From positions 381,984-445,983 of the forward strand of contig JAAXWF010000001.1 in NCBI GenBank assembly GCA_013335095.1: a DNA stretch of 64,000 bases. Direction: 5' to 3'. Positions 13,286 through 57,415 of this stretch are shown here, one piece after another. Below the pieces are notes generated by a model. That model did not search any database, had not been told where the DNA came from, and was given only the letters and a program-made list of their open reading frames with translations. The DNA comes from a candidate division WWE3 bacterium (GTDB taxonomy: Bacteria > Patescibacteriota > 4484-211 > GCA-002791395). Position numbers and translations under genes: made by a program. Each line of letters starts with the position of its first letter. The first letter of the stretch is position 1.

Positions 13286-13297
13286 TTACTAAATACG

Positions 13298-23320: not shown

Positions 23321-24385
23321 ATATTGTAGCTATTGTTGTTGCTTCCTGGGGCGCTACTACCAAGAAGCTCCGATTTGGAGTACTGACGTCATCAAAAGGA
23401 CATCCCTCCTTCCAGAAGCTCGCATATGCGAGCGAGTAAACGCTGCCGCAGGCGAGGGCCGGCGGGCGGGCCGGGGAGTGGTGGGCTTTATACCACCGAT
23501 ACAACTCCCGGGCACAGTGCGGCCGGCGCAATTTGCCGATTGGGCAGCGAATTGATCCAATTCCTGATGCATGTTGATCATAGATCGACACCGCGCAGGA
23601 ACGAGCAGCCGTTCGGTTCCGGATATCTGCCTTAGCAGAGTACCGTCGAGCGGGAGCCAGCTTGGCTCCGGCGAAAACCGAATGGGCGATACACTCTTGC
23701 GCGGGGCCAGGGCCGGCGGGGCATGACGCGCATAATAATCGCGCCTGCCAGGAACAAGCCAGCCGGGCCCGCAGGTACTCCTGCGCGGTGCCTAACACAT
23801 CTGCCTTAGCCTACGCCGCTGTGCCTCCGGTCATAGCCGGGGCGAGGCGTTTGGGCCGCTCGAAGGCGAGATGTGTTTTGACGGCTGCTTACAGCCGTCA
23901 CGGCGTGAGGCCTTCACCAAGCTAGAAGCTTGATGAAGAACCTCCCTGGTGCTAACCAGGCTCGATGGACTGGCCCCGGGAATACCGGTTCCATTTCATC
24001 GTGATCACCTCACTGTTTCTACCACCAGATAAAGCTTTTAAAAATCTATGCCGGTTGGTCCGGCCGGTCTATCCTCCACCTCCTGGTGGTGAGGTAGGGT
24101 AGACCTAGATCTTCAGCTTCATGGGGTAGCCTCCTTTCGTGCCTAAACGGCACATTGCGCCCACACCAAGCCGCGCATGGCTATGCGGTGGGGCTATTCC
24201 AGGTGTGCGGCAAGCGCGCTATGGCGTCTTTTGCGTTTCTACGCCGCGGGCGCTGCCAGAGGTCGATCAGGCCGCAGGCCGATCAGGCATCATAAGAGTT
24301 TGCGCACGAGTTAATGTGCTGGTGCAATAAGCACCTCCTTCTACCTATCATAGCGGATCTACGTTACCCGCCAAACGTGCAGACA

Positions 24386-24413
24386 TTATAACATAATAGG
24401 TGAGTAAGTCAAA
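24386..24413 (-). promoter_or_regulatory. strong sigma70-like promoter on the minus strand (TTGACT, 16 nt, TATAAT), driving transcription into the GC-rich island
   Basis: Near-consensus -35/-10 with 16-nt spacing, seen on the reverse complement. Confidence 0.45.
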
Positions 24414-24479
24414 CTATGGGCTTTGTGGTGGTATAATACCAAGTGTCTAAAGGGTCGGTCATCATAGAGGAGGCATGCT

Positions 24480-24998
24480 ATGCCGATGGTCGTGATCGAA
24501 TTGGAGAAAGAGCCGAGCCAGGCTCAGATACTGGAGCTACAGGCAATTTGGCCTGTGGCATCGATTCGGGTTTTCGGCGATCCCCAGGTGATTCCACCAG
24601 CAGTGGCGGAAACTGAGGAATTGGTGTTGCGGGTTAAGATTGGGGCATGGGGGTATGAGAGTCTTATTTCGAGCCTCAAATCACATCCCAGTCGTCTAGT
24701 TGTTCTGATCATGTCGGACGCGACCGTCGTGATCCGCCGTCGTAACGGCAGCATCACTGCGGGGATCATGGCACATGACGAATGCGACTTTCGCGTCAGG
24801 AGTTGGGGGCGCATCGATGATTTTGTCGATGCGATTCGTGCCATTGGCCCGGGCTGCCATGCTCGGACTGGATGGGGACGAACTGCTCACCTAATCAAGG
24901 ACGGATCGGCAGATGTCGTAGGATTTGCTGAATTCACGAAGCAGCAAAATCTGCCACCGCTGGTAATTGCCGAGATCAATCGACACAAACGGGGCTGA
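24480..24998 (+). CDS. hypothetical protein (172 aa), GC-rich
   Basis: SD GAGGAGG 7 nt before the ATG. Extended -10 (TGGTATAAT) about 45 nt upstream. Terminator hairpin at 25025-25056. Confidence 0.5.
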   Translation: MPMVVIELEKEPSQAQILELQAIWPVASIRVFGDPQVIPPAVAETEELVLRVKIGAWGYESLISSLKSHPSRLVVLIMSDATVVIRRRNGSITAGIMAHDECDFRVRSWGRIDDFVDAIRAIGPGCHARTGWGRTAHLIKDGSADVVGFAEFTKQQNLPPLVIAEINRHKRG

Positions 24999-39861: not shown

Positions 39862-40742
39862 ATGTCAAACAATGTCTACCAGAACCAGTCGAGATTAACG
39901 GAGTATTAATTGACCCTGTAGGTATCGATGATGCCGTGTCTTTTGTTCAATCGGCCATCAAACATCAACGAAAAGTACATATAGTTACTCCCAACCCAGA
40001 GATGATAGTTCTTGCGCAATCTAATGCTCAATTCAAACAAACGTTAAACGATTCCTCGCTACATATTCCCGATGGTGTAGGAGTTCAGGTGGCCGGAGAA
40101 TATTTCGCACATAAGGGAACTGTTAATGTTCCCGTGTTACGTGAAGCGATGGCCGTCATGTTTTGGTTTTACTTATTGTTCAGAGGACTACTGGCGAGTC
40201 GTTCATTCAAAACGATACCTTTTAGAACCACCGGAGTTGACTTATGCAATCAAATAGTTCACCTACCTGGTGTAAAGTTATTTCTTTTAGGTGGTTCAGT
40301 CGGTGTAGCAGAGGAGGCTGCTCAGTTGTTGAACGAAAAATATCCGAATTTACCTCCAGTCGGTTTTCATCAAGGCGGCGATATCAATTCTGATGGCCGT
40401 GGTCCGTTAGATGAAGAAATAGTTGTCACCATAAATTCATATAAACCAGATGTCATACTCGTCTGTTTTGGCGCTCCTCAGCAGGATCTCTGGTTATCTA
40501 AAAACTTATCCCTACTAAATACCCACGTCGGTATCGGAGTTGGAGGAACGCTCGACTTCATCGTTAATCGTCAGCAGCGGGCTCCGAGGTGGATCCGTAG
40601 AATTTCACTAGAGTGGCTGTGGCGATTCATTAAGCAACCTTCGCGGATACATAGAATTTGGACTGCTGTATATGTATTTTCTTGCCTATGTATAAGGAAG
40701 AAGATAACTATGGTACAATCGGGTTATGGCACCCGCGGTTAA
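39858..40742 (+). CDS. WecB/TagA/CpsF-family (GT26) glycosyltransferase
   Basis: ...DGVGV...FGAPQQDLW... signature of the WecB/TagA family. Confidence 0.6.
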   Translation: MNVKQCLPEPVEINGVLIDPVGIDDAVSFVQSAIKHQRKVHIVTPNPEMIVLAQSNAQFKQTLNDSSLHIPDGVGVQVAGEYFAHKGTVNVPVLREAMAVMFWFYLLFRGLLASRSFKTIPFRTTGVDLCNQIVHLPGVKLFLLGGSVGVAEEAAQLLNEKYPNLPPVGFHQGGDINSDGRGPLDEEIVVTINSYKPDVILVCFGAPQQDLWLSKNLSLLNTHVGIGVGGTLDFIVNRQQRAPRWIRRISLEWLWRFIKQPSRIHRIWTAVYVFSCLCIRKKITMVQSGYGTRG

Positions 40743-42321
40743 TCTCTCTATCCTTGATAAGGTTGAAGACTTTCTTGTACCAAAGTCATTGCTTAATTCT
40801 CGATCACATAATATCGTCATGGTTACCCCCGAAGCGAGTCCCTATGCGAGTGTTGGTGGGCTCTCTCGAGTTATTTCAGCCCTGTCTACGGCATTGATAA
40901 AATTGGGTCATGATGTCCGTATCTTTATGCCGAAATTTGGATCGATTGATGAACGCGAGTTTGAGCTAGAAATGGTTTACGAAGGCCTAAAAGTTCCAAC
41001 CGGTAATTCAGATAAACCGTACTTAATTTGCAATGTTAAACGTCATAAAATACCAGGAAGAGCCCCGGTATATTTTCTTGAGAACCGTGAATACTATGAA
41101 CTTCGAGCGAATGTATATGGATACAATGATGATGCGGTTCGGTGGGGGCTTTTAAGTCGTGGTGTCTTGGAGTACCTATTGTGCTGCAGTGATTGGATTC
41201 CAGATATCATTCACGCAAATGACTGGCAAACGGGATACATTCCTAATTATCTCGAAACTGCGCTAAAAGAATCCCCACTATATGAGAAAACTGCGACGGT
41301 GTTTACTATCCACAACCTTTCATATCAAGGTATGTTTGATCATCGAAACGTTAGTGACTTCGATTTTGACGACGGTAAAAGCGATATTGCTGATTTCTTT
41401 AATCCACGATTAATGAAGCAGAATTTCATGCGTCGTGGGATTATGTATTCCGATGTCGTCAATACTGTAAGTCCTACCTATTCACGTCAAATAATGAAAC
41501 CTGAATATGGCGAAGGGTTGGATCGCCTGTTATCGGAAAGTCGATCTAAGTTGTCAGGAATCTTGAATGCTATTGATTATGCTGAATATGATCCAACCAG
41601 CGATAAATTATTAACAGCTACGTTTAATGTCCAAACTCTAGAGCGTCGGAAATTTAATAAGGCGGCTTTGCAAAAGGAATTCGACTTAAAGCAAGATTTG
41701 AGTATTCCATTAATCAGCTATGTAGGCCGTTTAGATGGATATAAAGGTCTTCATCTTTTATTAGAAATAATTCCGCCATTATTACGTGACTTTAGTGTCC
41801 AATTTGTATTTGTTGGTGGTGGCGATAGTGGTATTGCCTCACGAATTCGCGCCATTCAGGAAAAATATCCAGATATGGTTGGTGCTCACCTGATGCTTGA
41901 TTTTGATCTACCTCGGCTCGTATTTGGTGGATCTGATTTAGTCGCAATGCCAAGCGCGTTTGAGCCATGTGGATTAGTTCAAATGGAAGCTATGCGATAT
42001 GGAGCTATTCCAATTGTTCACTCAACTGGTGGTCTGGCTGATTCTGTTCAAGACTACAATCCGGCGACTGAAGAGGGATTTGGCTTTGTGTTTAGAAATT
42101 TCGATGGCTGGAGTTTATTTGCACAGATTATTCGGGCAATCGAGACCTATCGCTCAAAAGATATCTGGACCAATTTACAAAAGAATGCAATGTCACTGGA
42201 TAACAGTTGGGAAGCTCGTGGTGTTGAGTATATTTCACTCTATGATAAGGCTATTCAGCTTCATAATCGAAAACTATCCCATCAAGGGAAAAACTTTTTA
42301 CAACGAGATATCTTAGAATAG
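40726..42321 (+). CDS. glgA: glycogen/starch synthase (GT5), copy 1
   Basis: IVMVTPEASPYASVGGLSRVISALSTAL...; C-terminal EPCGL... Confidence 0.75.
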   Translation: MAPAVNLSILDKVEDFLVPKSLLNSRSHNIVMVTPEASPYASVGGLSRVISALSTALIKLGHDVRIFMPKFGSIDEREFELEMVYEGLKVPTGNSDKPYLICNVKRHKIPGRAPVYFLENREYYELRANVYGYNDDAVRWGLLSRGVLEYLLCCSDWIPDIIHANDWQTGYIPNYLETALKESPLYEKTATVFTIHNLSYQGMFDHRNVSDFDFDDGKSDIADFFNPRLMKQNFMRRGIMYSDVVNTVSPTYSRQIMKPEYGEGLDRLLSESRSKLSGILNAIDYAEYDPTSDKLLTATFNVQTLERRKFNKAALQKEFDLKQDLSIPLISYVGRLDGYKGLHLLLEIIPPLLRDFSVQFVFVGGGDSGIASRIRAIQEKYPDMVGAHLMLDFDLPRLVFGGSDLVAMPSAFEPCGLVQMEAMRYGAIPIVHSTGGLADSVQDYNPATEEGFGFVFRNFDGWSLFAQIIRAIETYRSKDIWTNLQKNAMSLDNSWEARGVEYISLYDKAIQLHNRKLSHQGKNFLQRDILE

Positions 42322-42323
42322 CT

Positions 42324-43508
42324 ATGAAAGTTGGACTTTTTTTACACGCCTACCAGCCGCCAATTCAATTACCTCCTGTTACTAAAAGAATTGCTCAACA
42401 ATCATATATTCCGATTATTAAAGCACTCTTAAACAATAAAAAAGCCAAGATCACGATGAATATAGCCGGTTCATTAACCGAACAGCTTGTACAGCTCAGT
42501 GAGTATGAATTGTTGAATCAAGTAGGGTATGCGGCTACCCAAGGGCAATTAGAGTTGGTTAGTAGCGCTATGTTTCACCCTCTGCTAACTCATTTACCCA
42601 ATGACGAAATAATTCGACAACGCCAATTAAATGATGAAATCAATCTAAGGGTATTCGGCGAAAATGTCTATTCACCAAGAGGTTTTTTTCTCCCGGAGAT
42701 GGTTTATGACCATCGCGTTGGAGAAGTTTTATCTTCTGATGGAGTGGAGTGGTTATTGCTCGATGAGTCAGCTTATCCAAATGCTGGCTATCAAGAGGAC
42801 TGGCATAGTGATAGCCACTTTGATAGACATGTTTCGAGGGGATTAAATAAAATAAAGGGGCTAAGTACATTTGTCTTTTTTAGAGACCGGCCGATATCAT
42901 TAACTATTGCTTTCAATGGTGATCTAAAAGTTACACAAATAATCGAAGATATACGCCGTCATTTCTTAGATGGTCAAGAAAGTTACGTTATTTTAGCAAT
43001 GGACGCAGAAACTTTTGGTCACCACCATCCACATAACCTTACTTTGCTTGAAGATTTGATGAATGAAGAGTCGATTGAGATGGTCACAATGTCGGAATTA
43101 ACAAGCACTATCGATCAAATTACCGAAGTCTCTCCAGTTGTTTCGACCTGGGGGATAGCAGTTGAAGGATCAGAGGGTAAGCCCATTTTTCCTCGGTGGG
43201 ATAACCCTGATAATCCGATTCATGCTCTTCAGTGGGAATTATTTAATCTTGCGGTATCGGTTCGAAGTCATACCTCTAATATTCCAGATAATTTAGATCG
43301 GGGAGTTAATTCCGATCAATTTTGGTGGGCGAGTGCTAACCCTTGTTGGTATCCTGAAATGATTCGACGGGGGGCTGATTTTCTTCGTCAATCAATATAT
43401 CAGTCGGTGTTATCGAGCCCAGAGCAAAAGCAGTTAGCCGACGAATTAGTTCAATCAATTGTAAATGTCGGCACCGCTATGTATGGCAGCCATGTGCAGG
43501 GTTGCTAA
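42324..43508 (+). CDS. glycoside hydrolase family 57-like protein
   Basis: N-terminal LFLHAYQPP motif and length typical of GH57 alpha-glucan enzymes. Assignment is by motif memory only. Confidence 0.45.
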   Translation: MKVGLFLHAYQPPIQLPPVTKRIAQQSYIPIIKALLNNKKAKITMNIAGSLTEQLVQLSEYELLNQVGYAATQGQLELVSSAMFHPLLTHLPNDEIIRQRQLNDEINLRVFGENVYSPRGFFLPEMVYDHRVGEVLSSDGVEWLLLDESAYPNAGYQEDWHSDSHFDRHVSRGLNKIKGLSTFVFFRDRPISLTIAFNGDLKVTQIIEDIRRHFLDGQESYVILAMDAETFGHHHPHNLTLLEDLMNEESIEMVTMSELTSTIDQITEVSPVVSTWGIAVEGSEGKPIFPRWDNPDNPIHALQWELFNLAVSVRSHTSNIPDNLDRGVNSDQFWWASANPCWYPEMIRRGADFLRQSIYQSVLSSPEQKQLADELVQSIVNVGTAMYGSHVQGC

Positions 43509-43512
43509 CGTG

Positions 43513-44577
43513 TTATTGGATTAACTCGCGATACAAATTTTCGTAATCAGAGACCATCTTTTTCAGGGAAAAGTTTAATTCAATATATTTTCGACAGGCT
43601 TTACGGTCTAATGTCTGAATATTTTGGGCAGCATCTACCAGTTCATTGACTTCGATAGTATTTGTGATGATACCGTTTTTCCCATTCACAATAATTTCAG
43701 GAACAGATGCTCTATTTGGTGCAATTACAGGGGTTCCGGTTGACATTGCTTCGGTCATAACCAATCCAAATGGTTCGTTCCAGCGGATTGGGCAAACGAG
43801 TGCTAATGCATTTTGATATAAATCTTTGAGTGTATTTTGATCGACGGAACCGAGATATTGAATCTGTTCTCCAAGATAAGGTTTAATGGTTTGATCAAAG
43901 AAGCCTTGAGAGTAAGGATAAATACTTCCGGCAAGTACAAGTTTTTTATTTGATTTAAGTGCAACTTGAACTGCTATGTCTGGTCCCTTTTCTTCAATAA
44001 TCCTTCCACTATACAAAAGATAGTCGCCACCATCTCCATATCCCCAAAAGTCAGTATCTATTCCATTGTGTACTGTTTTCGACCAATGAACCTTAGGTTG
44101 TGGCTGTCGTTGCGCATTGGTTAAACTCACTAGGTGAATATTTGGAAAATCATTAAATAAATGAAGAATATTAAAGGCGGAGTCGACTACAGGGTCGTGG
44201 ACGGTCGCAATAACAGGTAATTCTGATGCTATCGGTGCGAAGTCAACAACGCTAAATGGCCGACAGTGGGTATGAAAGACATCAAAATTGTGCGTTGTTA
44301 GATAGTGCAAAGCCTTGATCATCATGACATTTTCGTATTGGTAACTAGAGCCTTCATGAGGATACTGGCTATAGATACGTTCATCATCAAACGGCAGCAT
44401 ATCAAACGTAATTAACTGAGCTCTAGTTTTAGTACCCTCAGGAGCAAAAAATACGACTTCATGACCGCGCTCTACTAATTCATCAGCAATCTGACCCGCT
44501 AAAGCCATACTTGCATAGATTGATCCTGCGGAAAGAGGATACGTTAAGTTATTAGTGCAATAAATACCGATTTTCAT
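43513..44577 (-). CDS. glycosyltransferase family 4
   Basis: GT-B fold. EPFGLVMTEAMSTGTPVIA motif. Confidence 0.65.
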   Translation of the reverse strand: MKIGIYCTNNLTYPLSAGSIYASMALAGQIADELVERGHEVVFFAPEGTKTRAQLITFDMLPFDDERIYSQYPHEGSSYQYENVMMIKALHYLTTHNFDVFHTHCRPFSVVDFAPIASELPVIATVHDPVVDSAFNILHLFNDFPNIHLVSLTNAQRQPQPKVHWSKTVHNGIDTDFWGYGDGGDYLLYSGRIIEEKGPDIAVQVALKSNKKLVLAGSIYPYSQGFFDQTIKPYLGEQIQYLGSVDQNTLKDLYQNALALVCPIRWNEPFGLVMTEAMSTGTPVIAPNRASVPEIIVNGKNGIITNTIEVNELVDAAQNIQTLDRKACRKYIELNFSLKKMVSDYENLYRELIQ

Positions 44578-45677
44578 TACTGTATTAGATTATAGTAAAA
44601 TTCTTCATATTGTAGGGCCATTTTCTCGGCGGTAAATCGTTGTTCAAAGTCTTGTCGGCATTGTTGCCTTGATAATGAATCAGCTTTCTCAAGGCTTTTT
44701 GCTAATTCTTCTATTGAATGGACTAAAAACCCTGTCTGACCATCGCGAATTATTTCGGGCATTGCAGCCCGATCCCATGCTATAACTGGGGTGCCGCATG
44801 CTAACGATTCAATGGCAACCAATCCAAATGGCTCATCCCATTGAATCGGCATCAAAGTTGCTTTCGCCTGCTGTAGAAAATGTTGCTTTTCTGAATGCCC
44901 CAGTGGACCTACCCATTCAATCTGATCTCCGTCGAGATATGGTTCTATGTTGTGTTTAAAATATTCTTTACTGGCATGGTCATGAATATCGATTGGACCG
45001 GCTAGACGTAGCTTATGCTTTGTTTTAAGTATTGCTTGAATAGCCTCTGCCGCACCTTTATTACCCGATAAATAACCAAGGAAAGCAAAGTAATTTCCCG
45101 GTTCTGTTGAATAATTTTCCCACTCTGCTAATGAGATGCCGTTATGTATGGTGGTTGATTTCCGGCCTAGTAACTTATTTAGCATTTCTCTCTGGAAATT
45201 GCTAACAACGACTGCGTGGGCATCAGCAAAGTGGGAATCGATTATTTTTACGTATGGGTCATATTCAGGTCCAAATTGATTGGTAATATCTGCTTCAAAT
45301 GATGCAGGGTGATGCATTGTAACTACAACGGGAGTATTTATAAGTTTAGCAAAATGCGAGCCAATAAAGTACGTATGGTCGTGAATAACATCAAATTCTT
45401 CGGCATGTCGAAACGCTTCTGAGATTGCCCAAACTGAAAAAGTTTCAGGACTACGTATCGCCGTCTGTGGATCGTTGCTAAGACCAGTTGGCCATAGAGG
45501 ATAGAGCTTTGCCGATGTCTTCGAATCTGCGGTACCAAATACGGTGACGTCATGACCACGTTTGATTAATTCCTCGGTAAGGTAATACACCATTTGCTCC
45601 AACCCTGCCTTATGCTTAGGGGGGATTGACTCCATTAAGTTAGTAACTTGCGCAATTCTAAGTCGTTTTTTGTTCAT
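44577..45677 (-). CDS. glycosyltransferase family 4
   Basis: EPFGLVAIESLACGTPVIA motif. Adjacent paralog of the previous gene. Confidence 0.65.
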   Translation of the reverse strand: MNKKRLRIAQVTNLMESIPPKHKAGLEQMVYYLTEELIKRGHDVTVFGTADSKTSAKLYPLWPTGLSNDPQTAIRSPETFSVWAISEAFRHAEEFDVIHDHTYFIGSHFAKLINTPVVVTMHHPASFEADITNQFGPEYDPYVKIIDSHFADAHAVVVSNFQREMLNKLLGRKSTTIHNGISLAEWENYSTEPGNYFAFLGYLSGNKGAAEAIQAILKTKHKLRLAGPIDIHDHASKEYFKHNIEPYLDGDQIEWVGPLGHSEKQHFLQQAKATLMPIQWDEPFGLVAIESLACGTPVIAWDRAAMPEIIRDGQTGFLVHSIEELAKSLEKADSLSRQQCRQDFEQRFTAEKMALQYEEFYYNLIQ

Positions 45678-46915
45678 GTTAAATGTGGTAACTTCGCATA
45701 AAAATCGCTTCGATCTTTATCGAATTTCTCGTATCCTTCTTCAATTTTTCCTGACCAATGATAAAGCCATAGTTCTTTGATGAATTCACTAAATAGAACC
45801 TCAGTCTCTCGTTTTAGTTCAATTGTTCCAGGTAAACTGCGCATACTTCGAATAAGTTCCTGCGCCCCCGCTTCGGCCAAGTCGGGATGCCACCATGGGT
45901 AGTTAGATAACCAAAACAGATGACACGAAGATATACCACGGTCAAAATGTCTTTCAGCCGATGAATAAATCAGATTAATATCGTTATCGGGTCGGGGTAT
46001 CTCGTGAAAACCTTGTTCAACCAGTCTCATTAAACGTATATAAAGTTCCTGTAACCGATTGTCTTGCGCAAACCAAGTCGGAAAATAGTCATGGCGCTTA
46101 TGTTGCTCGTATGTTGTTTCCCACGTTCCTGGATAGATATCTTTTCGTTCAATTGTAGGTATTTGTTGTATTTGTGTAATCGCTTCGGTTACTTTTCTGA
46201 TCTGTAAATCTTTGCGATTCATTAGTTCGATGAAGAAATCGAGACGTCCCTGATAGTGATGACCAAAAAGCTCAACATCGTTAACAGATATGATGGGTAA
46301 ATCGTTTGATTTGCCCTGGGATAAGAACTCGACAAATTTGTCGGCATTTATGCGTTCTCGATGTGATCTGAGTACTTCTGTTACTCCTTGCGTCGATTGG
46401 ATCAGTGTTAACCCATTAAAGTTTAATATTGGATGTTTAGGGAATTCAATTAGGTTGTAATCAGGGTTTATGCTGCTCTCACTAACAATGCAAAAATCGA
46501 ATTTATCAATCAGGCAATCGAGTACGCTGGTCGTTATTGCAAGTTCGGGCGGATAAATTCCACTAATTGTCTCTGTATTGTAAAATTGACGGGTTATCTG
46601 AGCATTGTATTCAATCTGTCGAAGCCCAACGCTTGGTGGTATTAAGGGGAGTAACGGATGGTATAGTGGTGTCGAGAGTATTTCAATCTGTTCTCGACCA
46701 GTTAACTCTTTCATTAGGTCGAAAAAATCATTTGCATCGAGTTCTTGGAGCTGGAGGGTCAAAGATCCTGTGATGTTAATGGTGAGGTGGACGTCTGGGT
46801 GTTGTTGAATTGCCTTTAGGATCGGCAGGTAATTAGATCGTAGCACTTGTTGAGTAATGCCGATGTCTTGTGTGGGGGGTTGGTAAAAATGTAATATGGG
46901 AGACCAGGTAAGCAT
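45674..46915 (-). CDS. glycoside hydrolase family 57-like protein (second copy)
   Basis: N-terminal ILHFYQPP motif paralogous to 42324..43508. Confidence 0.45.
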   Translation of the reverse strand: MLTWSPILHFYQPPTQDIGITQQVLRSNYLPILKAIQQHPDVHLTINITGSLTLQLQELDANDFFDLMKELTGREQIEILSTPLYHPLLPLIPPSVGLRQIEYNAQITRQFYNTETISGIYPPELAITTSVLDCLIDKFDFCIVSESSINPDYNLIEFPKHPILNFNGLTLIQSTQGVTEVLRSHRERINADKFVEFLSQGKSNDLPIISVNDVELFGHHYQGRLDFFIELMNRKDLQIRKVTEAITQIQQIPTIERKDIYPGTWETTYEQHKRHDYFPTWFAQDNRLQELYIRLMRLVEQGFHEIPRPDNDINLIYSSAERHFDRGISSCHLFWLSNYPWWHPDLAEAGAQELIRSMRSLPGTIELKRETEVLFSEFIKELWLYHWSGKIEEGYEKFDKDRSDFYAKLPHLT

Positions 46916-46963
46916 AATACCTTATTATATCAGGAATAAACTAAGGAAAGGAAAAATATTATT

Positions 46964-47977
46964 ATGGGATTGATTTCTGAATATACTGACAATATTGAAA
47001 AGTTATTAATTGAACATTATGATCTTGGTGAATATATCTCTGATTATCAATTTCTTGGAGGTATTCAAAACATAACGCGTAAGATAACAACAACAAAAGG
47101 GGAGTATGTACTAAAGCAATATCAACACAGTAGTGGGAATGTCGAGCGACTTACTGCGGTATTAAACGCAATTCAACTACTACATGATCATGGGGCTCCC
47201 ATTCCATCAATTATTAACACTAAATCAGGTAGTCTTTTTGTGCCTCTAGATGACGATACTTATTATGCAATCGCAATCTCTCAATTTCTTGATGGCGTAT
47301 TAGTATTTTATGATGATATCGATTTATCCCATGCTCAAGCGGCAGGAAATGCATTGGCGAAATTGCATCAGACCATTGATTCAATTGACATGAAGTCCAT
47401 TCACCTACCTCAACCTTTATCCCTACCTGAACGAATAAACCGGCTTGATCAACGTTTGCGAAAAAATCTTCAACACAATTATTTAGAACTTAACCCAAGT
47501 ATGCTCGAACGAATTGATAATTTATGGGAATCTGTATTTACTGAGCTATTAGGATTGAATCATATTTTTATCGTCCAAGATCGGATCATACACGGTGATT
47601 TTATTAGGGGTAATTTATTGTTTGATGGCGATGATGTTTGCGGCATTCTTGATTTTGATGCAATGAGAAAGGGGAGTTTCCTTGAGGATTTAAGCGGGGC
47701 GGTATTTCAGTGGTTTTGGGATGAACGAAAAATGTTTGCGTACGAAGATATACGTGACGCCCTAGTACATGGATATAAAAATATCCGTCCGGATGAAAGT
47801 AGTTTTACCACCGATGTTCGACTTATTGACCTCTTTGTACTACTTATTGCTTGGGAAAAAATGACAGGATTTTTAGATCATCCTCGGGATGAAATTCAGC
47901 TGGCTTTTCACGAAAGCTTATTTAATGAATTAAAAGATAAACTGTTTTTAATGAGTGCGCGTCTGTCGTACAATTAA
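46964..47977 (+). CDS. aminoglycoside-phosphotransferase-fold (APH/maltokinase-like) kinase
   Basis: Brenner motif HGDFIRGNLLF and DFD metal-binding motif. Confidence 0.6.
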   Translation: MGLISEYTDNIEKLLIEHYDLGEYISDYQFLGGIQNITRKITTTKGEYVLKQYQHSSGNVERLTAVLNAIQLLHDHGAPIPSIINTKSGSLFVPLDDDTYYAIAISQFLDGVLVFYDDIDLSHAQAAGNALAKLHQTIDSIDMKSIHLPQPLSLPERINRLDQRLRKNLQHNYLELNPSMLERIDNLWESVFTELLGLNHIFIVQDRIIHGDFIRGNLLFDGDDVCGILDFDAMRKGSFLEDLSGAVFQWFWDERKMFAYEDIRDALVHGYKNIRPDESSFTTDVRLIDLFVLLIAWEKMTGFLDHPRDEIQLAFHESLFNELKDKLFLMSARLSYN

Positions 47978-47990
47978 ATAAAGTCAGGAT

Positions 47991-48575
47991 ATGAAAACAT
48001 TCTTTTTAGTAAGGCATGGGTACACTCAAGTACCAGAACAAGATCAAACCGCTAATACTCCACTTAGTGATATCGGAAAGAATCAAGCTGCATCTTTGGC
48101 GGATCGTTTATGTGGGATGGAGATCGACCACATCTTTACCAGCCCCTTTCACCGCGCAATCGAAACGGCATCAATCGTGAATCTTAAATTAAATGTACCG
48201 ATCTCTACGGATGATCGACTCAAAGAGATTAGTCTATGGCTAACACCATCTGATTTACATAACCAACCTCGTCGAAAGTACCAAAAGGAGATTAGCATGT
48301 TACGCCATACTAAAATACAACTTCATAAAATGCTTGATGAAGTCATTAATCATCCAGATGAATCGTATAAAAATATCGTCATGGTTAGCCATGGAAACCT
48401 TATGCGGGCGATTTTGGCGTACACTTTAAAGATGGATTTAGAGACGGTTGTACGCCTTAATATAGGGCATGCATCGATTTCGATATTAAAATGGGAGGGG
48501 AGTGCATCTGAACCGTTCTTTCGACTCGATCGATTCAATGATACAGCTCATTTAGAGGAGGGGATTATCGTATGA
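47991..48575 (+). CDS. histidine phosphatase (phosphoglycerate-mutase family)
   Basis: LVRHGYTQ (RHG catalytic motif); ...SHGN... second His. Confidence 0.65.
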   Translation: MKTFFLVRHGYTQVPEQDQTANTPLSDIGKNQAASLADRLCGMEIDHIFTSPFHRAIETASIVNLKLNVPISTDDRLKEISLWLTPSDLHNQPRRKYQKEISMLRHTKIQLHKMLDEVINHPDESYKNIVMVSHGNLMRAILAYTLKMDLETVVRLNIGHASISILKWEGSASEPFFRLDRFNDTAHLEEGIIV

Positions 48576-50059
48576 GAGTGATTCTTGCCGCTACAGAGAT
48601 GGCACCATTACTAAAATTGGGCGGACTTGGAGATGTTATTGGCAGTTTACCAAAAGAACTAAAGAAGCTTGGAGTTGATGTTTCGGTAATTATTCCTTTT
48701 TACCATGAGGTTGAAGTTAGTAAAAGCCAAAAACCTTTGTGCTCGTATTCGATTGCATTTGCTGGTCAGGATGAATCGGTATCAATTTATAAAACGAGTG
48801 TTGATGACGTACCAGTATATTTGGTAGATAACCAGAAGTATATTGATCTGTATGAAAAGGTTGCAATTGCGTTTGATCAACGTGAGGTTGACCATTACGC
48901 CTTTTTTAGTAAAAGCGTCGTGGAGTTTTTAGGGCGTGAATATGATGGAATTTTTGATATTGTTCATTTACATGATTGGCACGTGGGTCTTGTGCCGCAT
49001 CTATTCAGAGTTCTTTTCCCAAATCGAATCAAACCGAGTTTTCTATTTACCATACATAACCTGGGATATCACGGATACTCCGAAACCGAATTAATTAAAC
49101 GACTTGCGATCAAAAATATTACCGAAATCAGCGACGATCCATTTTTTGATTTTGATGCTCGCCAAGACGATCAACTAGATCTCTTGTTACAGGGACTTAT
49201 CGGTTCAGATTATATTTCAACGGTATCGCCAACGTATGCGAAAGAGATTCAAACCAAGGAATACTGCGACGGTTTATGCGACATACTTCAGATCCGCTCG
49301 AATAAATTGTATGGCATTATTAATGGTCTAGATACTGAATTGTGGAATCCTAAATCTGATCGTGATATATATGCCACATATGCATTGGAGCCGATTAGTG
49401 AAAAAGATACACCTTCACTAATCTCAAAACGAATTATGGATGCAAAGGATTTAAATAAAGCATCTTTGCAGCATGATTTACATTTAACAGTAGATAAACG
49501 GGTTCCGTTGCTGGGCTTTGTGGGTAGGTTAGAACCGGGGCAGAAAGGTTTGGATTTACTGTACGATGCGATAACGAGCCTTCTAAGCGATGCCTCTTTT
49601 CGTTTCCAATTTGCCTTAATTGGGGTCGGCCTTCCAGAATGGGAGGAGCGTTTTAGGGCACTTGCAGAAAGTAATCCGAAACGCGTTTCTGCCTCGATCG
49701 TATTTGATGAGCAGATCGCACGAAGAATATATGCCGCGAGTGATTTAATGCTGATTCCGAGTCGATATGAACCGTGTGGTTTAGTTCAATTGATTGCAAT
49801 GAGATATGGAGCAGTGCCAATTGTACGAGCTACAGGGGGGCTAAAAGACACCGTAGAGGACGGGGTTGATGGATTAGTGTTTGAAAACTACGATTCATAT
49901 GAATTCGTTAATAAAATAAAATCGGGGTTGAATTCATATAACTATGACGATCAACATTTCAAAGAGATGATTATTCGTGGTATGAGTAAGGATTTTAGTT
50001 GGAATCAACCGGCTAAAGAATACATGAACTTGTATCAGAAGATTTTTACGAATAGATAA
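48572..50059 (+). CDS. glgA: glycogen/starch synthase (GT5), copy 2
   Basis: [49 protein letters not shown]. Confidence 0.75.
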   Translation: [495 protein letters not shown]

Positions 50060-50067: not shown

Positions 50068-50256
50068 TTATTGTTTTGCGGCTCCCAAAAATTCTAATAT
50101 TTGATCTTTAAAATAACGACGATCACCACGTCCATTTATTTTTATAGGAATAAGTATTCCTTTCTTTTCCCATCGCTTTAAGGTTAGAGGAGTTACTTGT
50201 AATATTTCAGCAACTTGAGTGATTGTTAATATTTGCGGATAAGCTTCGAGCAACAT
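50068..50256 (-). CDS. small excisionase/MerR-type helix-turn-helix DNA-binding protein (62 aa)
   Basis: LTITQVAEILQVTPLTLKRWEKKGIL...GRGDRRYF resembles the excisionase-family HTH. Confidence 0.5.
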   Translation of the reverse strand: MLLEAYPQILTITQVAEILQVTPLTLKRWEKKGILIPIKINGRGDRRYFKDQILEFLGAAKQ

Positions 50257-50358: not shown

Positions 50359-50739
50359 TTATTTGAGTTCTACAGCAGCTCCGGCAGCCTTGAGCTTTTC
50401 TTCCATCTTCTTTGCTTCTTCTGTTTTTACGCCTTCAGCAATGTTTGATGGGGTTTTATCAACTAAGTCTTTTGCTTCTTTGAGTCCGAGTTCTGGTTTC
50501 AATTCTCGAATAACTTTAATTACGTTAATCTTATTGTCTCCAGCACCAGTGAGGACAACGGTGTATGAATCTTTCTCTTCTGCGGCGGCTTCAGCACCAG
50601 CACCTGCGACAGGAGCGGCAACAGCCATTGGCGCAGCAGCAGAAACGCCGAATTCATCTTCGAGTGCCTTTACTAATTCGGCAACATCCATAATACTAAG
50701 TTCTTTTATCTGACTTACAATTTCTTCAACTTTAGCCAT
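50359..50739 (-). CDS. rplL: 50S ribosomal protein L7/L12
   Basis: [32 protein letters not shown]...; Ala-rich hinge. C-terminal domain. SD GGGGGTGAGG upstream. Confidence 0.9.
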
Positions 50740-51271
50740 TTGCCTCACCCCCTCCTTTTTTCTCAATCGCGCTTAAAGCATAGACAAGGTTACGGACGTT
50801 TGCGGTAAGTACATAGGCCAATCCATAGAGAGGGGCCTTGATCTGACCCATGAGCCTTGCAACCAATTCCTCTTTAGATGGAAGCATTGATATATTTTTG
50901 ACTTGGTTTTCATCAACAAACTGATTTTCAATAATGGCCCACTTAATTTTGGGTAATTCATTCTTTTTCATGAAATCGGCTAATTTTTTAATTGGTGTAA
51001 CGATATCTTCGCCGATAAATAGGGTAGCTGTTGGACCGGTTAGATCATTATCTATGGCACGAACGGCTTCGACGTCATGCTTGCTCAACGCAATTTTCAT
51101 TAAAGTGTTTTTGGTAATTTCAATTGATCCACCATCTTCAGCTATTGCTAAGCGTAAATCTTCTAATTGACGATGGGTGAGACCTTTATAATCTAAAAAT
51201 ACGACACCAGTGGAGGTGTTAACTCGATCGGTAAGATTTTCAACTCGTTGTATATTTTTTGTGTTTGGCAT
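50732..51271 (-). CDS. rplJ: 50S ribosomal protein L10
   Basis: Typical L10 sequence and its position upstream of rplL. Confidence 0.85.
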
Positions 51272-51423
51272 AAAGTTCCTACGTTGGATTTATTTCGCGG
51301 AAATGAAACCAACGGTCTTTGGATAACGTCGGTATTATATCTTAGCTACTATTATCTGACAATAGGGATTTGTATCAATGAGTAAGCCCGAGCTGACAGA
51401 TTGCTGTCAGCTCGGGGGCGGTC

Positions 51424-51780
51424 TTAAGCCTTCTGATCGATCCGCATTGTCGTGCTGTACCCCCCGGGGTGAACGACGAAGATGACGAGTGCCTTTTCCG
51501 GACCGTCACCGACCGTCGCTACGAGGCTAGAGGGAACTGTCGACCCGACGATCAACTGGTCGAGCGTCAGCCAGCGGTACTCGCCAGCTGGCACTAGTGC
51601 ACCCGTTAGATCGACGACAACAGCACCCTTTTCCGAGTGGCTTTCGCGATATGCCCAAAGGTTAGGCAGCTCGCGAACCAGCAGCTCCTGATCCTCTCGT
51701 TGTAGCCGCGTAACTAGAGCGGCTTCCTCATCGCCCGACATAGTCGGACTCCTTTCGTTATAGAGCCTAATTAACGACAA
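51424..51780 (-). CDS. hypothetical protein (118 aa), GC-rich, inserted between rplK and rplJ where rplA normally lies
   Basis: Coherent GC-rich ORF. No L1 features. Location read directly from gene order. Confidence 0.45.
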   Translation of the reverse strand: MSLIRLYNERSPTMSGDEEAALVTRLQREDQELLVRELPNLWAYRESHSEKGAVVVDLTGALVPAGEYRWLTLDQLIVGSTVPSSLVATVGDGPEKALVIFVVHPGGYSTTMRIDQKA

Positions 51781-51824
51781 TATTATTATATAAGAAAGAG
51801 ACCTATAAGTCTAATTACGTGGGG

Positions 51825-52247
51825 TTAAATCACATCAATGCCCATGGATCGGGCGGTACCAGCGATGATTTTAGCGGCTTGTTCAACGTTTTTGGTATTT
51901 AAATCAATTTTCTTTTCTTCGGCGATGCTGCGAACTTGATCCATCGTTATTTTACCAACTTTTTGACTTGGGCTTTTTCCGCTACCTTTAGGAATACCAG
52001 CGGCTTTAAGGATGAGTGAACTTGCTGGAGGAGTCTTAAGAGCGAGCTCAAAACTGCCATCTTCAAAAATAGTGCATTCTACTGGAATTATTTGACCCTT
52101 TTTATCAGCGGTCATTTTATTGTATTGGTTAACAAATTCCATGAGTGGCACGCCATGTTGACCTAATGCTGGTCCAACAGGAGGTGCTGGAGTTGCTCCA
52201 CCAGCGGGTAAATTTAATTTTACAACTGTTTTAACTTTTTTTGCCAT
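51825..52247 (-). CDS. rplK: 50S ribosomal protein L11
   Basis: [33 protein letters not shown]... canonical L11. Confidence 0.9.
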
Positions 52248-52357: not shown

Positions 52358-52951
52358 TTAGAGTTTTCCGACCTGTAAGAAGTCTAATTCAACAGGTGTT
52401 TCACGTCCAAAAATTGAAACAAGTACTTTAATTTTACCGCGTTCGTGGTCAATTGAATCAACGGTACCAACGAAATCAGAGAATGGCCCGTCGATAATCT
52501 TGACGCCTTCACCAACTGAAAATTGAGTTTCATACTGCGGTGCTTCTTGCTCAGAGAATTTCTTGATTGCAGCAACTTCTGTTTCGGTCAGCGGTACTGC
52601 TTTTTCTGCGGTACCAACAAACGATGTTACTCCAGGAGTATCTTTAACCAAGCTAAAACTTTCGTCGGTTAAGATCATTTTTACTAAAACATACCCAGGG
52701 AATAGACGTTCGGTAATTTCGCGGCGCTTTCCTTCTTTAACTTCAATTTTCTGTTGTGTTGGAATATAGATTTCTTCAATTAACTCAGAGAGTCCGAAGA
52801 ACTTCATTCTTTTTTCAAGGTTAATCTTTACTTTATTTTCATGACCACTATACGTATGGGCGACGTACCACTGTGGCTGTCTTTTTGCCTCAAGATGTTT
52901 TTTAACTGAGGTTTCTTGTATCTCTTGTGTTTCTTGTCTTTCTTCAGTCAT
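52358..52951 (-). CDS. nusG: transcription antitermination factor NusG
   Basis: NGN domain (WYVAHTYSGHENKV). C-terminal KOW (GEGVKIIDGPFSDFVGTV). Confidence 0.85.
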   Translation of the reverse strand: MTEERQETQEIQETSVKKHLEAKRQPQWYVAHTYSGHENKVKINLEKRMKFFGLSELIEEIYIPTQQKIEVKEGKRREITERLFPGYVLVKMILTDESFSLVKDTPGVTSFVGTAEKAVPLTETEVAAIKKFSEQEAPQYETQFSVGEGVKIIDGPFSDFVGTVDSIDHERGKIKVLVSIFGRETPVELDFLQVGKL

Positions 52952-52970: not shown

Positions 52971-53153
52971 TTATTGAATAAATGTTTCGATGACTTTTGT
53001 CAAACCGAAATCAATTACTCCGACATATGCACCAACTACTACGGTAGCTATTATAACAAGTGTTGTCATCTTTATTGTTTCTGCCCTGCTTGGCCAGCTT
53101 ACTTTCTTCAGCTCGGCGTACACATCCTGGAAGAAACCGATTACCGTTTTCAT
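52971..53153 (-). CDS. secE: preprotein translocase subunit SecE
   Basis: 60-aa single-TM protein (ELKKVSWPSRAETIKMTTLVI...) immediately upstream of nusG. Confidence 0.8.
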   Translation of the reverse strand: MKTVIGFFQDVYAELKKVSWPSRAETIKMTTLVIIATVVVGAYVGVIDFGLTKVIETFIQ

Positions 53154-53201: not shown

Positions 53202-56000
53202 ATGCCCCAATACTTTAATAACACTGGCGATAGTCGGCCGATGTCGGTAGATGAGTCTCGCGAGCGATTAAAAGGACTTTTAAATCGCGATGGACAGCCT
53301 ACGAATACTCCAGTGCCAGAAGAGGGTGTCAAAGTTCGTTCTCGAATAATGTCCCAACTCCAAGAAGCTGCTCGTCCTATAAATCAGACCGAATCTCCCC
53401 AAGAAAAATCTTTTGTTCCCTTAGCTCAGGTCCATTCTGAAGATTCTTTGTCTAATGGATATGAACAAATGGACGCTCAACCCGCAGCATATAACGAAGT
53501 TCCTGTTTCACCAGTCGAATCTCCCGAGATCCTAAATCCTACGCCATCGTCAACCCCTGCAGTTATTGCACCACAGCCACAAGCAACCGAGCATGCTCAG
53601 GTCGCAGCGGCTACTGCCAAATTAGAGCAAGCGTACTCTGAAGAACCTGTTGATAACGGTCCTGCGCTCTCTACTGAAGTCGACTACAAAACGTTAAATC
53701 CCCAGAATGGAAATTATTGGAATACCCTTTGGAATAAGTTTGTTAAATCAGGTACTGTTTTTCATCAATCCGAAGAAAAAGTAGTGTTGGAGGTGTCGGT
53801 GCCTCAGGATAATGAGGTCGAAATTCCAGCGGCCGAACAACTCTATTCAAGTCTTACGAGTGTTGGGCAAAAACAAGGATTTTGGTTCGATATGGTTGTT
53901 GGTATACTGCCTCAATTTGAAATCTTTTTTAAAAATCCCGAGCATTCAATCTCGTGGGAAATTGCCGCTAATAATGATTCTATTCGTTTTTGGGTTGTTG
54001 TACCAAAATCAATTGCTGAGTACATCGAAAGACAGATTCACGGTAGCTATCCCGATGCTGATATCTCAATTGCTAAGACGGATGATTTCTTTTTAGAACG
54101 TGGTCATGTTCAAGTTTCAGAAGTCGCGATAAAAGGACGATCATTTTACCCAATTCGTGATGCTGAAGATTTAGGAGTTGATCCATTAAGTTCAATTACC
54201 TCAGCGGTAAGTAAATTATCAGAACATGAACGAGTATTGCTACAAATCATGATTCAACCAGCTGATGATGGCTGGCGGAATAAGGGACAGGCATTTATCA
54301 ACGGCGCTCAGAATCCGCCAAAAGATGATAAGGTTAGACGAAAGAACGTTGATCCTCAATTAATTCAGGCTGTCCAGGAAAAGTTAAGTCGTCCAGGGTT
54401 TCGGGTCGCAATTCGGATACTTGTTCAAGCTTCGGATCCGCAGCAAACCAAGATGCTTACCGATAATATAATTCGTACTTTTGATCAATTTGATATGCCT
54501 CAGATGTCGAATTTGATGAAAACCCACGTAAAGATGAATCATCAAGTAGCTGAAGCGATTGTTGTTCGAAGGTTTCCAGAATGGGGGAATTATCCGGTGT
54601 TAAATACAAAAGAACTAGCCGCTCTGTATCATTTTCCAAATAAAAATATTCATACTCCACGCTTATCTTGGTTACGATTTCGAAAAAGTCCGCCGCCAAC
54701 AAACGTTCCGACTGAAGGTTTGTATTTAGGAAAAAGTGAGTTTAGAGGTACTGATCTTAAAGTTCATTTAGGCAGGGAAGATCGACGTCGACACCTTTAT
54801 ATTATTGGACAGACCGGTACCGGTAAATCGGAATTCCTCAAATATTTGGCCTATCAAGACATAATGAACGGAGATGGGTTAGCCTTCATTGATCCCCATG
54901 GAGAGGCTGTTGAAGATATTCTCCAGATGATACCAAAAGAACGGGCCGAAGATGTGATATATTTTAACCCCGCCGATACTGAGCGGCCGTTTGGCTTAAA
55001 TATTTTAGATGCCAAAACGGAAGATGCTCAACATCTTGTGGTAAATTCCTTTATCGGCCTTTTATACAAATTGTATGATCCAAACCATAGCGGAATAATA
55101 GGGCCGCAACTTGAGCGTGCCGTGCGTAACGTTATGCTGACTGCAATGGCCGAACCTGGCAACTCGATGATTGAAGTACTAAAGCTTTTGGTGAATGATA
55201 AGTTTGCAGAGTCCAAGATTCCATTGATCAAAGACCCGTTAGTAAAGAGCTTTTGGACCGATCAGATGGCAAATACGTCTCAACAAACTAAATCAGAAAC
55301 ACTAGGATATTTTGTTAGCAAATTCGATCGTTTTGTGACAGAAAAAATGATGCGTAACGTGATTGGTCAGTCGACTTCTTCGTTTGATTTCCGCGAAGTT
55401 ATGGATAAAAGAAAGATATTATTAGTAAATCTCAGTAAGGGGTTAATTGGTGAAGATAATAGTAATTTTCTTGGGCTTATTATTGTTCCTCGAATTCTAG
55501 CAGCTGCGATGAGTCGTGCGGATATGGCTAACCAAGATCGAAAAGATTTTTTCCTATATGTTGATGAGTTTCAGAACTTTGCGACTCCCGATTTTGCTCA
55601 GATTCTTGCCGAGGCACGAAAATATAGACTAAACTTAGTTGTCGCTAACCAGTTCATTGCACAAATGAAGGAGGAAATTCGTGATGCAGTATTCGGAAAC
55701 GTCGGTACGATGGTAAGTTTCCGGGTTGGTGTTGACGATGGTGGGTATCTAGAAAAACAATTTGATCCAGTTTTCAAGCAGTCCGACTTGATTAACCTAA
55801 CCATGGGACAATGTGTTGTTCGTCTATTAATCGGGGGACAACAATCGAGGCCATTTTCATTCAAAACTGATTGGCCAGCTATGCAAGAAGTTAAGAAAAA
55901 CTCCAGAATCGCCGAAGTAATAAAAGAGATTAGTCGACTGAAGTATGGCCGAGACCGATCAATTGTCGAAAATGAGATAGCGGTAAGAGCGGGGTTCTAG
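53202..56000 (+). CDS. large soluble P-loop ATPase of the TraD/VirD4/HerA-FtsK (type IV coupling protein-like) superfamily, with a long low-complexity N-terminal half
   Basis: Walker A YIIGQTGTGKSEFLKYL. Walker B LYVDEFQNFA. Arginine finger-like region. No TM helices. TATAAT promoter at about 53175. Confidence 0.55.
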   Translation: MPQYFNNTGDSRPMSVDESRERLKGLLNRDGQPTNTPVPEEGVKVRSRIMSQLQEAARPINQTESPQEKSFVPLAQVHSEDSLSNGYEQMDAQPAAYNEVPVSPVESPEILNPTPSSTPAVIAPQPQATEHAQVAAATAKLEQAYSEEPVDNGPALSTEVDYKTLNPQNGNYWNTLWNKFVKSGTVFHQSEEKVVLEVSVPQDNEVEIPAAEQLYSSLTSVGQKQGFWFDMVVGILPQFEIFFKNPEHSISWEIAANNDSIRFWVVVPKSIAEYIERQIHGSYPDADISIAKTDDFFLERGHVQVSEVAIKGRSFYPIRDAEDLGVDPLSSITSAVSKLSEHERVLLQIMIQPADDGWRNKGQAFINGAQNPPKDDKVRRKNVDPQLIQAVQEKLSRPGFRVAIRILVQASDPQQTKMLTDNIIRTFDQFDMPQMSNLMKTHVKMNHQVAEAIVVRRFPEWGNYPVLNTKELAALYHFPNKNIHTPRLSWLRFRKSPPPTNVPTEGLYLGKSEFRGTDLKVHLGREDRRRHLYIIGQTGTGKSEFLKYLAYQDIMNGDGLAFIDPHGEAVEDILQMIPKERAEDVIYFNPADTERPFGLNILDAKTEDAQHLVVNSFIGLLYKLYDPNHSGIIGPQLERAVRNVMLTAMAEPGNSMIEVLKLLVNDKFAESKIPLIKDPLVKSFWTDQMANTSQQTKSETLGYFVSKFDRFVTEKMMRNVIGQSTSSFDFREVMDKRKILLVNLSKGLIGEDNSNFLGLIIVPRILAAAMSRADMANQDRKDFFLYVDEFQNFATPDFAQILAEARKYRLNLVVANQFIAQMKEEIRDAVFGNVGTMVSFRVGVDDGGYLEKQFDPVFKQSDLINLTMGQCVVRLLIGGQQSRPFSFKTDWPAMQEVKKNSRIAEVIKEISRLKYGRDRSIVENEIAVRAGF

Positions 56001-56914: not shown

Positions 56915-57415
56915 TTACCACGCTAAAGCGCCTGCCTCCATGAGGTCACTCAGGTGCTGCTTAATGTCATCACCCGAGAGTTCCTTGCTGTTTACATCGA
57001 TGAACTTCACCGTAACACCTTGGGGGCATTCACGGATCACCTGTTCGTAGATGTTCATGCTGGATAGACGAGTCCGACCGAGAGCCTCTGCCCTTTGAGT
57101 CAAGTCCCCGAATCCTTTCGAGCTTCCCCAATATACCCCAAATCTGACCGCATATTTGATCTTGCGTCCTTTTGGGGGGATTGAGGTTATTTGGACTTCG
57201 TGAATATAAAGCCCAATGTGACCCATGGGGAGGTAGGGGTCATCAGCCAAGAATTCGAGCATATTCTCAGGCCGAATCACTGCCTCGACCGTAATCTCGG
57301 TTACACCGAGATCCTGTGCCCTCGCGATGAATCCCTTGAGAGTTTTGAGGCGTTTGGGAATCAGACATCGCGTCCAGTCATAGGCTTTTTGAAACCTGCG
57401 AGTGATTTTGGACAT
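56915..57415 (-). CDS. hypothetical protein (166 aa), moderate GC
   Basis: SD GGAGGAC 5 nt before the ATG. Extended -10 (TGGTATAAT) upstream. Own terminator at 56860-56900. No family recognised (HIGLYIHEV segment). Confidence 0.5.
   Translation of the reverse strand: MSKITRRFQKAYDWTRCLIPKRLKTLKGFIARAQDLGVTEITVEAVIRPENMLEFLADDPYLPMGHIGLYIHEVQITSIPPKGRKIKYAVRFGVYWGSSKGFGDLTQRAEALGRTRLSSMNIYEQVIRECPQGVTVKFIDVNSKELSGDDIKQHLSDLMEAGALAW

Follow-up and report, generated by a model that had tools for sequence, protein, structure and literature searches.

Gene order and absence of rplA

The stretch analyzed here, called the window, comprises 64,000 nucleotides of a contig from a candidate division WWE3 bacterium (assembly GCA_013335095.1, contig JAAXWF010000001.1, positions 381,984 to 445,983 of the forward strand); all coordinates are counted from its first letter. 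The object of study was the slot between rplK, which encodes ribosomal protein L11, and rplJ, which encodes L10. In the canonical order this slot holds rplA, the gene for L1 (uL1); in the window it holds a GC-rich open reading frame (ORF). The following features define the locus.

52971-53153, minus strand: secE (Pfam SecE, E 1.5e-20)
52358-52951, minus strand: nusG (Pfam NusG, E 3e-27, plus KOW)
51825-52247, minus strand: rplK (L11; Pfam Ribosomal_L11_N and Ribosomal_L11)
51749-51755, minus strand: Shine-Dalgarno sequence AAAGGAG, 7 nt before the ATG at 51741 (read from the sequence)
51424-51741, minus strand: the GC-rich orphan ORF, 105 aa plus stop, NCBI HGA91_02300 (identified by GC content by codon position, ribosome-binding site and a homolog in the related locus L010)
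50732-51271, minus strand: rplJ (L10; Pfam Ribosomal_L10, E 7.5e-22)
50359-50739, minus strand: rplL (L7/L12), 126 aa by the Logan gene call on contig L097, with the mechanical ORF extending to 50766 (Pfam Ribosomal_L12_N and Ribosomal_L12)
50068-50256, minus strand: a small MerR-type gene (Pfam)

With these Pfam assignments, the order on the minus strand is secE-nusG-rplK-[553 bp, 51272-51824]-rplJ-rplL, as had been proposed in an earlier sequence-only reading of this DNA. That reading had also stated that rplA is missing between rplK and rplJ and that the occupant of the slot is GC-rich, and both statements held. The GC content is 0.61 at 51400-51700, compared to ca. 0.39 in the flanks.

The absence of L1 was established by three methods. 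The slot ORF had no match to the Pfam L1 family (PF00687), even at E values up to 1. A custom L1 hidden Markov model (HMM) was constructed from nine Marinimicrobia L1 proteins, which came from a scan of genome contigs with the L10 of the window (only Marinimicrobia loci were found). This model yielded zero matches among all six-frame ORFs of the window and of the related loci L010 to L013; the genuine L1 of another Candidate Phyla Radiation (CPR) locus, L015, served as a positive control and scored at E 4.5e-55. Finally, the best tblastn match of the L015 L1 to the window had an E of 0.7 and was located outside the slot. Because Pfam, the L1 HMM and tblastn were all negative, we conclude that neither the cluster nor any other part of the window contains rplA or a pseudogene remnant of it. 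Two wider searches with an alignment of the L015 and Marinimicrobia L1 proteins were uninformative for this genome: the protein search returned mostly Marinimicrobia L1s, and the metagenome scan returned generic L1 loci (38-45% identity among the matches listed).

The abrupt jump in composition, in a genome obtained from a metagenome, could be accounted for by an assembly chimera in which foreign GC-rich reads had been joined to the WWE3 contig. This explanation is effectively refuted. Run SRR11449211 provides two Logan contigs that match the window at 100% identity (L098 to 52597-51655 and L097 to 51668-40732), and together they cover both junctions of the GC-rich block. In addition, a separate sample (SRR21121619) features a homologous ORF beside its own rplJ. 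The GC-rich block is not an assembly artefact. The break between the Logan contigs is located inside the slot ORF, where they overlap by just 14 nt (51655-51668), and next to the break is a 14-nt tandem repeat with imperfect copies (51666-51694); a branch in the assembly graph, low coverage or strain variation might account for the break.

The slot ORF as a probable protein-coding gene

The occupant of the slot had been described as an ORF of 118 aa. A mechanical ORF of this length does exist, starting at an in-frame TTG at 51780. However, the ATG at 51741 is the better-supported start and results in a product of 105 aa. It is preceded by AAAGGAG, the Logan gene call begins at the same ATG, and the 105-aa product is exactly that of NCBI protein HGA91_02300, annotated on the 536,166-bp contig.

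The GC contents at the first, second and third codon positions (GC1, GC2 and GC3) of the slot ORF are 0.71, 0.43 and 0.63, respectively, and the pattern GC1 > GC3 > GC2 was found in the ORF frame only. The GC3 of 0.63 is twice that of the neighboring genes (0.28-0.34, ca. 0.31); native genes of the window have values of 0.27-0.40. A homolog is located directly upstream of rplJ in L010, the nearest relative. The in-frame protein alignment has 30% identity over 102 aa (E 6e-11), with conserved blocks that include KG-V--DLTG--V--G--RWL, and the nucleotide identity of the two ORFs is 45%. The L010 homolog is incomplete, extends over at least 130 aa and has a GC3 of 0.45; it derives from a different run (SRR21121619) than the window.

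Nonsynonymous (dN) and synonymous (dS) divergences were compared between the window and L010. The slot ORF has a dN of 0.73 and a saturated dS; the respective values are 0.15 and 1.8 for rplJ and 0.06 and 0.9 for rplL. By dN, the slot ORF has evolved approximately five times faster than rplJ, and the reading frame has stayed open in both genomes. Given the coding-like GC pattern, the L010 homolog and the good start context, the slot ORF looks like a genuine protein-coding gene; the fast dN, yet open frame in both lineages, points to weak constraint.

An improbable alternative is that the block functions as a structured RNA or a regulatory element and encodes no protein, the ORF being open only because stop codons are infrequent in GC-rich DNA. 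The RNA of the ORF folds more stably than dinucleotide shuffles, with z-scores of -2.85 in the window (51424-51760) and -3.26 in L010 (L010:60-395); short ORFs of 42-69 aa are present in other frames of the block, and no protein family accounts for the ORF. However, the codon-position GC is typical of coding sequence in the ORF frame, the protein alignment to L010 is significant and in-frame despite the 45% nucleotide identity, and a good ribosome-binding site and an ATG are present. Also, no Rfam family matches the GC-rich block at E values up to 10. Another GC-rich ORF of the window (13545-13880) likewise folds below its shuffles (z -2.19), which argues that the signal is not specific to the locus; stable folding may be a property of the entire GC-rich gene class. 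Because the folding exceeds that of shuffled sequence in both genomes, a role of the slot ORF region at the RNA level is conceivable.

Properties of the product

The product is acidic, with a predicted isoelectric point (pI) of 4.7, 15 D+E versus 9 K+R residues, and a mass of roughly 11-12 kDa. L1 is a basic rRNA-binding protein of ca. 210-230 aa (208 aa in L015), and the pI is 9.6 for both L1 and L11; the 105-aa product resembles it in neither respect. A word-based search of 5.8 billion proteins returned only the query itself, and an exhaustive HMMER search of 1.84 billion representatives yielded no credible homolog beyond the self-match. The only other matches of the HMMER search were two 2,300-aa proteins with Ig-like repeats (Big_9 and Ig_7), each with 11 weakly matching stretches; the repeats belong to different families, and the matches were rejected as artefacts of repeats and composition. 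No family was found for the ORF in Pfam, PHROGs, PADLOC or NCBIfam, nothing was found in a scan of IMG/VR, and a profile of the two homologs had no match below E 0.5 among the sequences of the PDB. No signal sequence was obvious by eye at the N-terminus of either homolog (no predictor was used).

With neither a credible homolog nor a family, and with an acidic pI, the product is, as judged from these comparisons, unrelated to L1 and without a recognizable family. The earlier statement that an unrelated gene occupies the slot was therefore upheld when the ORF was aligned to L1 and to the databases. Most likely, the product is a fast-evolving accessory protein and not a component of the ribosome.

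It is very doubtful that the ORF encodes a new ribosome-associated protein standing in for L1. Its location in the exact slot of rplA, in the same orientation and within reach of read-through from rplK, would suit such a role. But the product is acidic (compared to basic L1 and L11), it evolves about five times faster than L10, its composition is foreign, and it has no similarity to L1 by Pfam, HMM or tblastn. Further, the related loci L011, L012 and L013 are without rplA at this site too, and yet they do not have the ORF. For these reasons, the ORF does not appear to be a substitute for L1.

Candidate transcription signals and the rplJ leader

The spacer contains the following candidate signals.

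51785-51813, minus strand: promoter-like site TAGACT-17-TATAAT, 10/12 matches, upstream of the slot ORF (consensus scan; a pattern match only)
51387-51416, minus strand: perfect 13-bp GC-rich hairpin with a 4-nt loop, 8 nt past the stop codon of the slot ORF (inverted repeat I4)
51334-51362, minus strand: rplJ promoter-like site TTGTCA-17-TATAAT, 11/12 matches (consensus scan)
51272-51333, minus strand: rplJ leader, 62 nt (identity to L010, shared motif, inverted repeat I2)
51324-51309, minus strand: leader motif AUCCAAAGACCGUUGG (shared motif)
51282-51296 and 51300-51314, minus strand: arms of a 15-bp hairpin in the leader (inverted repeat I2)

The terminator scan found no terminator between rplK and the slot ORF, so read-through from rplK into the ORF is possible. 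To this extent, the earlier suggestion that the placement might exploit transcription of the ribosomal operon is sustained. The 13-bp hairpin downstream of the ORF is part of the minimum-free-energy fold and is unique in the window. It is followed by CTTACTCATTG, which has no U-tract, and it was not called by the terminator scan. At the same place in L010, an 11-bp hairpin is followed by TTTTCTTTTCT, which contains a T-run, and the whole constitutes a canonical intrinsic terminator. The hairpin of the window is a probable transcript end or stabilizer. According to the arrangement of these elements, the slot ORF would be expressed together with rplK, as the second cistron of that unit, and/or be transcribed from the promoter-like site upstream of it; transcription would then end or pause at the 13-bp hairpin, and rplJ-rplL would be transcribed separately from their own conserved promoter through a leader of the autoregulatory type.

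In E. coli, these genes have the classical organization in two units, rplKA and rplJL. The window is similar in that rplK and one further cistron are followed by a hairpin, after which rplJ-rplL have a strong promoter of their own and a structured leader. It differs in that an unrelated, acidic orphan gene is the second cistron and the hairpin lacks a U-tract. Because the second cistron is this orphan rather than the gene for L1, autoregulation of the rplK unit by L1 would not be possible from the locus.

The L10 leader had been said to be missing along with rplA. This was not borne out: the 11/12 promoter match and the conserved 62-nt leader with its 15-bp hairpin directly precede rplJ. L010 has the same -10 hexamer, which reads TACAAT in L011 and L013; the -35 hexamer aligns in L010 only. 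Between the window and L010, the identity (counted by hand) is ca. 88% from the -10 hexamer to the ATG and 79% from the -35 hexamer to the ATG (window 51272-51365, L010:449-542), while synonymous divergence in rplJ is nearly saturated (dS 1.8). The motif AUCC(A/G)AAGACCG(U/C)UGG is common to the window, L010 and L011, and L013 has a variant with two mismatches (AUCCGAAGACAGUAGG). The high identity to L010 in spite of the rplJ dS, together with the shared motif, points to a short, diverged and strongly constrained leader with its own promoter; binding of L10 to this leader is putative.

The Rfam model of the L10 leader (RF00557) scored 16.7 bits (E 3.8) on the window, below the gathering threshold of 44, and its alignment enters the coding region. 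Among the relatives, L015 passed the threshold with 52.6 bits, and L014 (43.2 bits) and L013 (37.8 bits) fell just short of it. The window element shares with RF00557 the position directly upstream of rplJ and strong conservation; it differs in its shortness (ca. 62 nt) and in its score. There seems to be a short L10 leader variant in CPR that is hardly recognized by the Rfam model.

Comparison with related loci

Relatives were found by searching with L10, and their contigs were retrieved. The loci are given below with the identity of their L10 to that of the window.

L010 (nearest relative, protein P0003; 79%): homologous ORF, then rplJ-rplL; the contig ends inside the ORF
L011 and L012 (54%): secE-nusG-rplK-[134 bp]-rplJ-rplL-MerR-glgA
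L013 (53-54%): secE-nusG-rplK-[84-aa ORF on the opposite strand; 389-aa ORF]-rplJ-rplL
L015 (43-44%): canonical secE-nusG-rplK-rplA (208 aa)-rplJ-rplL
L014, L016 and the locus of P0007 (44-47%): rplJ-rplL detached from rplK

In the matrix of L10 identities, the window, L010, L011 and L013 form a group (50-79%) apart from L014, P0007 and L015. Within this group, rplA is absent between rplK and rplJ in the window, L011, L012 and L013; the L010 contig does not reach rplK. By L10, the contigs L011, L012 and L013 represent two distinct lineages, and what the slot contains varies within the clade. The slot of L011 and L012 contains neither rplA nor an insert, and the synteny of its flanks with the window is kept. 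The two slot ORFs of L013 (L013:2387-3912) have no family and a native GC3 (0.32-0.34). That they might be a diverged L1 or kin of the window ORF was ruled out by alignment and by the L1 HMM. The N-terminus of the 389-aa ORF resembles a twin-arginine signal (RRELGKLFLGAAIAG).

In this region of the tree, the organization of the rplKAJL cluster is unusually variable. One of the detached rplJ-rplL pairs (among L014, L016 and the P0007 locus) follows a gene for a 2,859-aa protein with beta-helix and Peptidase_S74 regions.

The sequence-only reading had the ORF replacing rplA, and this part of it fails: the slot is a 134-bp spacer in L011 and L012, it holds unrelated ORFs in L013, and in L015 the order is rplK-rplA-rplJ. 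Since members of the clade without rplA have an empty or unrelated slot and L015 is canonical, rplA would have left first and the ORF would have come later. The simplest reading of the comparison is a single, older loss of rplA from the site in the ancestor of the clade, followed by independent fillings of the slot. In this order of events, the GC-rich ORF would have entered the slot in the branch of the window and L010 and other genes would have entered it in L013, and the slot would have stayed empty in L011 and L012. It had also been considered that the ORF might prove to be a native gene conserved in all relatives. It is conserved in the nearest one (L010) and not in the others.

Origin of the slot ORF

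The explanation that we favor as the likely one is that the ORF is a real, lineage-restricted gene for an acidic protein, situated in the rplK-rplJ spacer of a WWE3 subclade from whose site rplA had already gone. The gene would have been acquired, probably from a GC-richer source, in the ancestor of the window and L010, or it would have been re-acquired later. A horizontal derivation is probable from two features: the composition deviates (GC3 0.63 versus 0.27-0.40 in native genes), and presence at the syntenic site is patchy (in the window and L010, absent from L011 and L012, with other genes in L013). In these features, and in its narrow distribution, its absence from sister lineages and its lack of a domain, the ORF resembles the ORFan islets of presumed horizontal origin. 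It differs from them in the lack of mobility genes, a tRNA target or flanking repeats, and in the high GC3 despite saturated divergence. Neither a mobility signature (repeat, tRNA or integrase) nor a donor was found, and the databases searched returned no homolog. A promoter duplication or target-site repeat on either side of the ORF was also sought; the two sides have just the TATAAT hexamer in common, which is not significant (380 of 1000 shuffles score as well).

Several points weigh against this explanation. The GC3 is still 0.63 despite the saturation of synonymous sites between the window and L010, which a simple ancient acquisition with subsequent drift to the composition of the host does not predict; the high value would be explained by repeated exchange with an unseen pool of GC-rich genes. 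An insertion event is not marked by any integrase, duplicated target site or repeat in the flanks, and no tRNA is nearby. The stable folding of the ORF RNA in both genomes, given above, is a further such point. An AlphaFold2 model from the single sequence suggests an N-terminal helix followed by four strands, but its mean predicted local distance difference test (pLDDT) score of 49 makes it uninformative. The ORF is known here from sequence alone, and there is a single, partial homolog, on a 1.5-kb contig (L010) that ends inside the ORF and leaves rplK outside.

The composition would also be accommodated if the slot were a hot spot of cassette turnover, at which the window and L010 ORFs, instead of descending in place from one ancestral gene, were each acquired or exchanged from GC-rich genes of outside origin (phage, plasmid or host) that repeatedly land in the rplK-rplJ spacer. 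We regard this as unlikely, though less so than the other alternatives. Conservation falls sharply at the -35 hexamer, with ca. 88% identity in the leader compared to 45% nucleotide identity in the ORF, and the hairpins of the window and L010 are entirely different in sequence. GC3 is far above native in the window ORF (0.63; 0.45 in L010) though dS is saturated. The same slot carries other genes in L013 and nothing in L011, and many further GC-rich orphan islands are present in the window. Against turnover, mobility genes, attachment-site repeats and duplications are absent. Searches of IMG/VR, PHROGs and the 1.84 billion representatives yielded no relative, and hence no donor pool is visible. 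Also, the ORF dN of 0.73, set beside the dS of 0.9-1.8 in the flanking genes, fits divergence in place under weak constraint.

Some WWE3 uL1 proteins are reported to have lineage-specific N-terminal extensions without a family (PMC9297842), and the position and orientation of the ORF fit the 5' end of a former rplA. The ORF could accordingly be the stranded remnant of such an extension (40-130 aa) after deletion of the uL1 core. A native composition would then be expected, yet GC3 is 0.63 versus 0.31, and in L011 and L012 the loss is clean, with nothing left. We consider this origin highly improbable, and the lineage-restricted acquired gene is retained as the favored explanation.

The GC-rich gene class

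The ORFs of the window split by GC3 into a native class (0.27-0.40) and a GC-rich class (0.48-0.81), with three ORFs between them (0.44-0.47). At least 13 ORFs are in the GC-rich class, scattered among native genes, and the slot ORF is one of them.

Regions with GC-rich ORFs: 460-4741, 6379-8943, 12146-13949, 17978-18839, 23277-24998, 51.4-51.7 kb and 56915-57415

The native-class ORFs that were tested belong to ordinary Pfam families, and no GC-rich ORF of the window passes a Pfam or PHROG threshold. The ORF at 6379-7539 has weak radical-SAM matches only (Pfam 27.1 bits with a cut-off of 29.5, and two PHROG matches at E 0.002-0.01). Because the slot ORF belongs to a class of at least 13 GC-rich ORFs without families, the genome is judged, from composition, to have a distinct compartment of GC-rich orphan genes.

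An orphan gene in the spacer of a ribosomal-protein cluster is not unusual in itself. The slot ORF is mainly of interest as an example of the two-class gene composition of this genome, which points to a sizeable, uncharacterized pool of accessory genes; the main contig is only ca. 0.5 Mb.

Possible loss of uL1 in the subclade

The sequence-only reading had referred to known losses of L1 in CPR lineages. Such losses are documented, but they have been described only for a subgroup of the Parcubacteria/Paceibacteria (PMC9297842; PMC12641178), for which the uL1-less clusters are credited to Brown et al. (2015), as cited in PMC9297842. WWE3 are reported to keep uL1, often with an unusual sequence, and to be without Der and helix 78 of 23S rRNA (PMC9297842; PMC12641178). 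The present loci resemble those of the uL1-less Parcubacteria/Paceibacteria in belonging to CPR bacteria in which rplK is not followed by rplA, with rplK abutting rplJ in L011 and L012. They differ in belonging to WWE3, and in that, for the genome of the window, the absence was seen over 64 kb, on a contig that measures at least 536 kb.

We advance only tentatively, as a possibility that is more doubtful than probable, that the subclade of the window, L010, L011/L012 and L013 has wholly lost uL1, and that lineage-specific genes then came to settle in the vacated slot, one of them from the orphan compartment with a GC3 of ca. 0.6 in a genome of ca. 0.3. The clean rplK-rplJ junction in L011 and L012 matches the expected look of a true loss; rplA may instead have been relocated. 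If true, the total loss of uL1 would be the first case outside the known Parcubacteria/Paceibacteria group. If L1 were absent genome-wide, the organism would have neither Der, helix 78 nor uL1, a combination unreported for WWE3 in published surveys, and it would be a natural test case for the limits of reduction of the L1 stalk.

Neighboring genes

On the rplL side, the region adjoining the ribosomal cluster (40726-50059) contains a dense series of genes of glycogen and glycan metabolism, including two synthases of the Glyco_transf_5 type, GH57 enzymes and GT4 transferases. The order of glgA, His_Phos_1 and APH beside the cluster is kept in L011 and L012. L013 has no glgA beside the cluster and keeps His_Phos_1, APH and a GH57 gene. 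On the other side, a divergent gene for a 932-aa homolog of VirD4/TraG-like coupling proteins (53202-56000; TrwB_AAD_bind and T4SS-DNA_transf) adjoins secE. This gene has a native composition and is located in the same place in L013 (L013:1-978).

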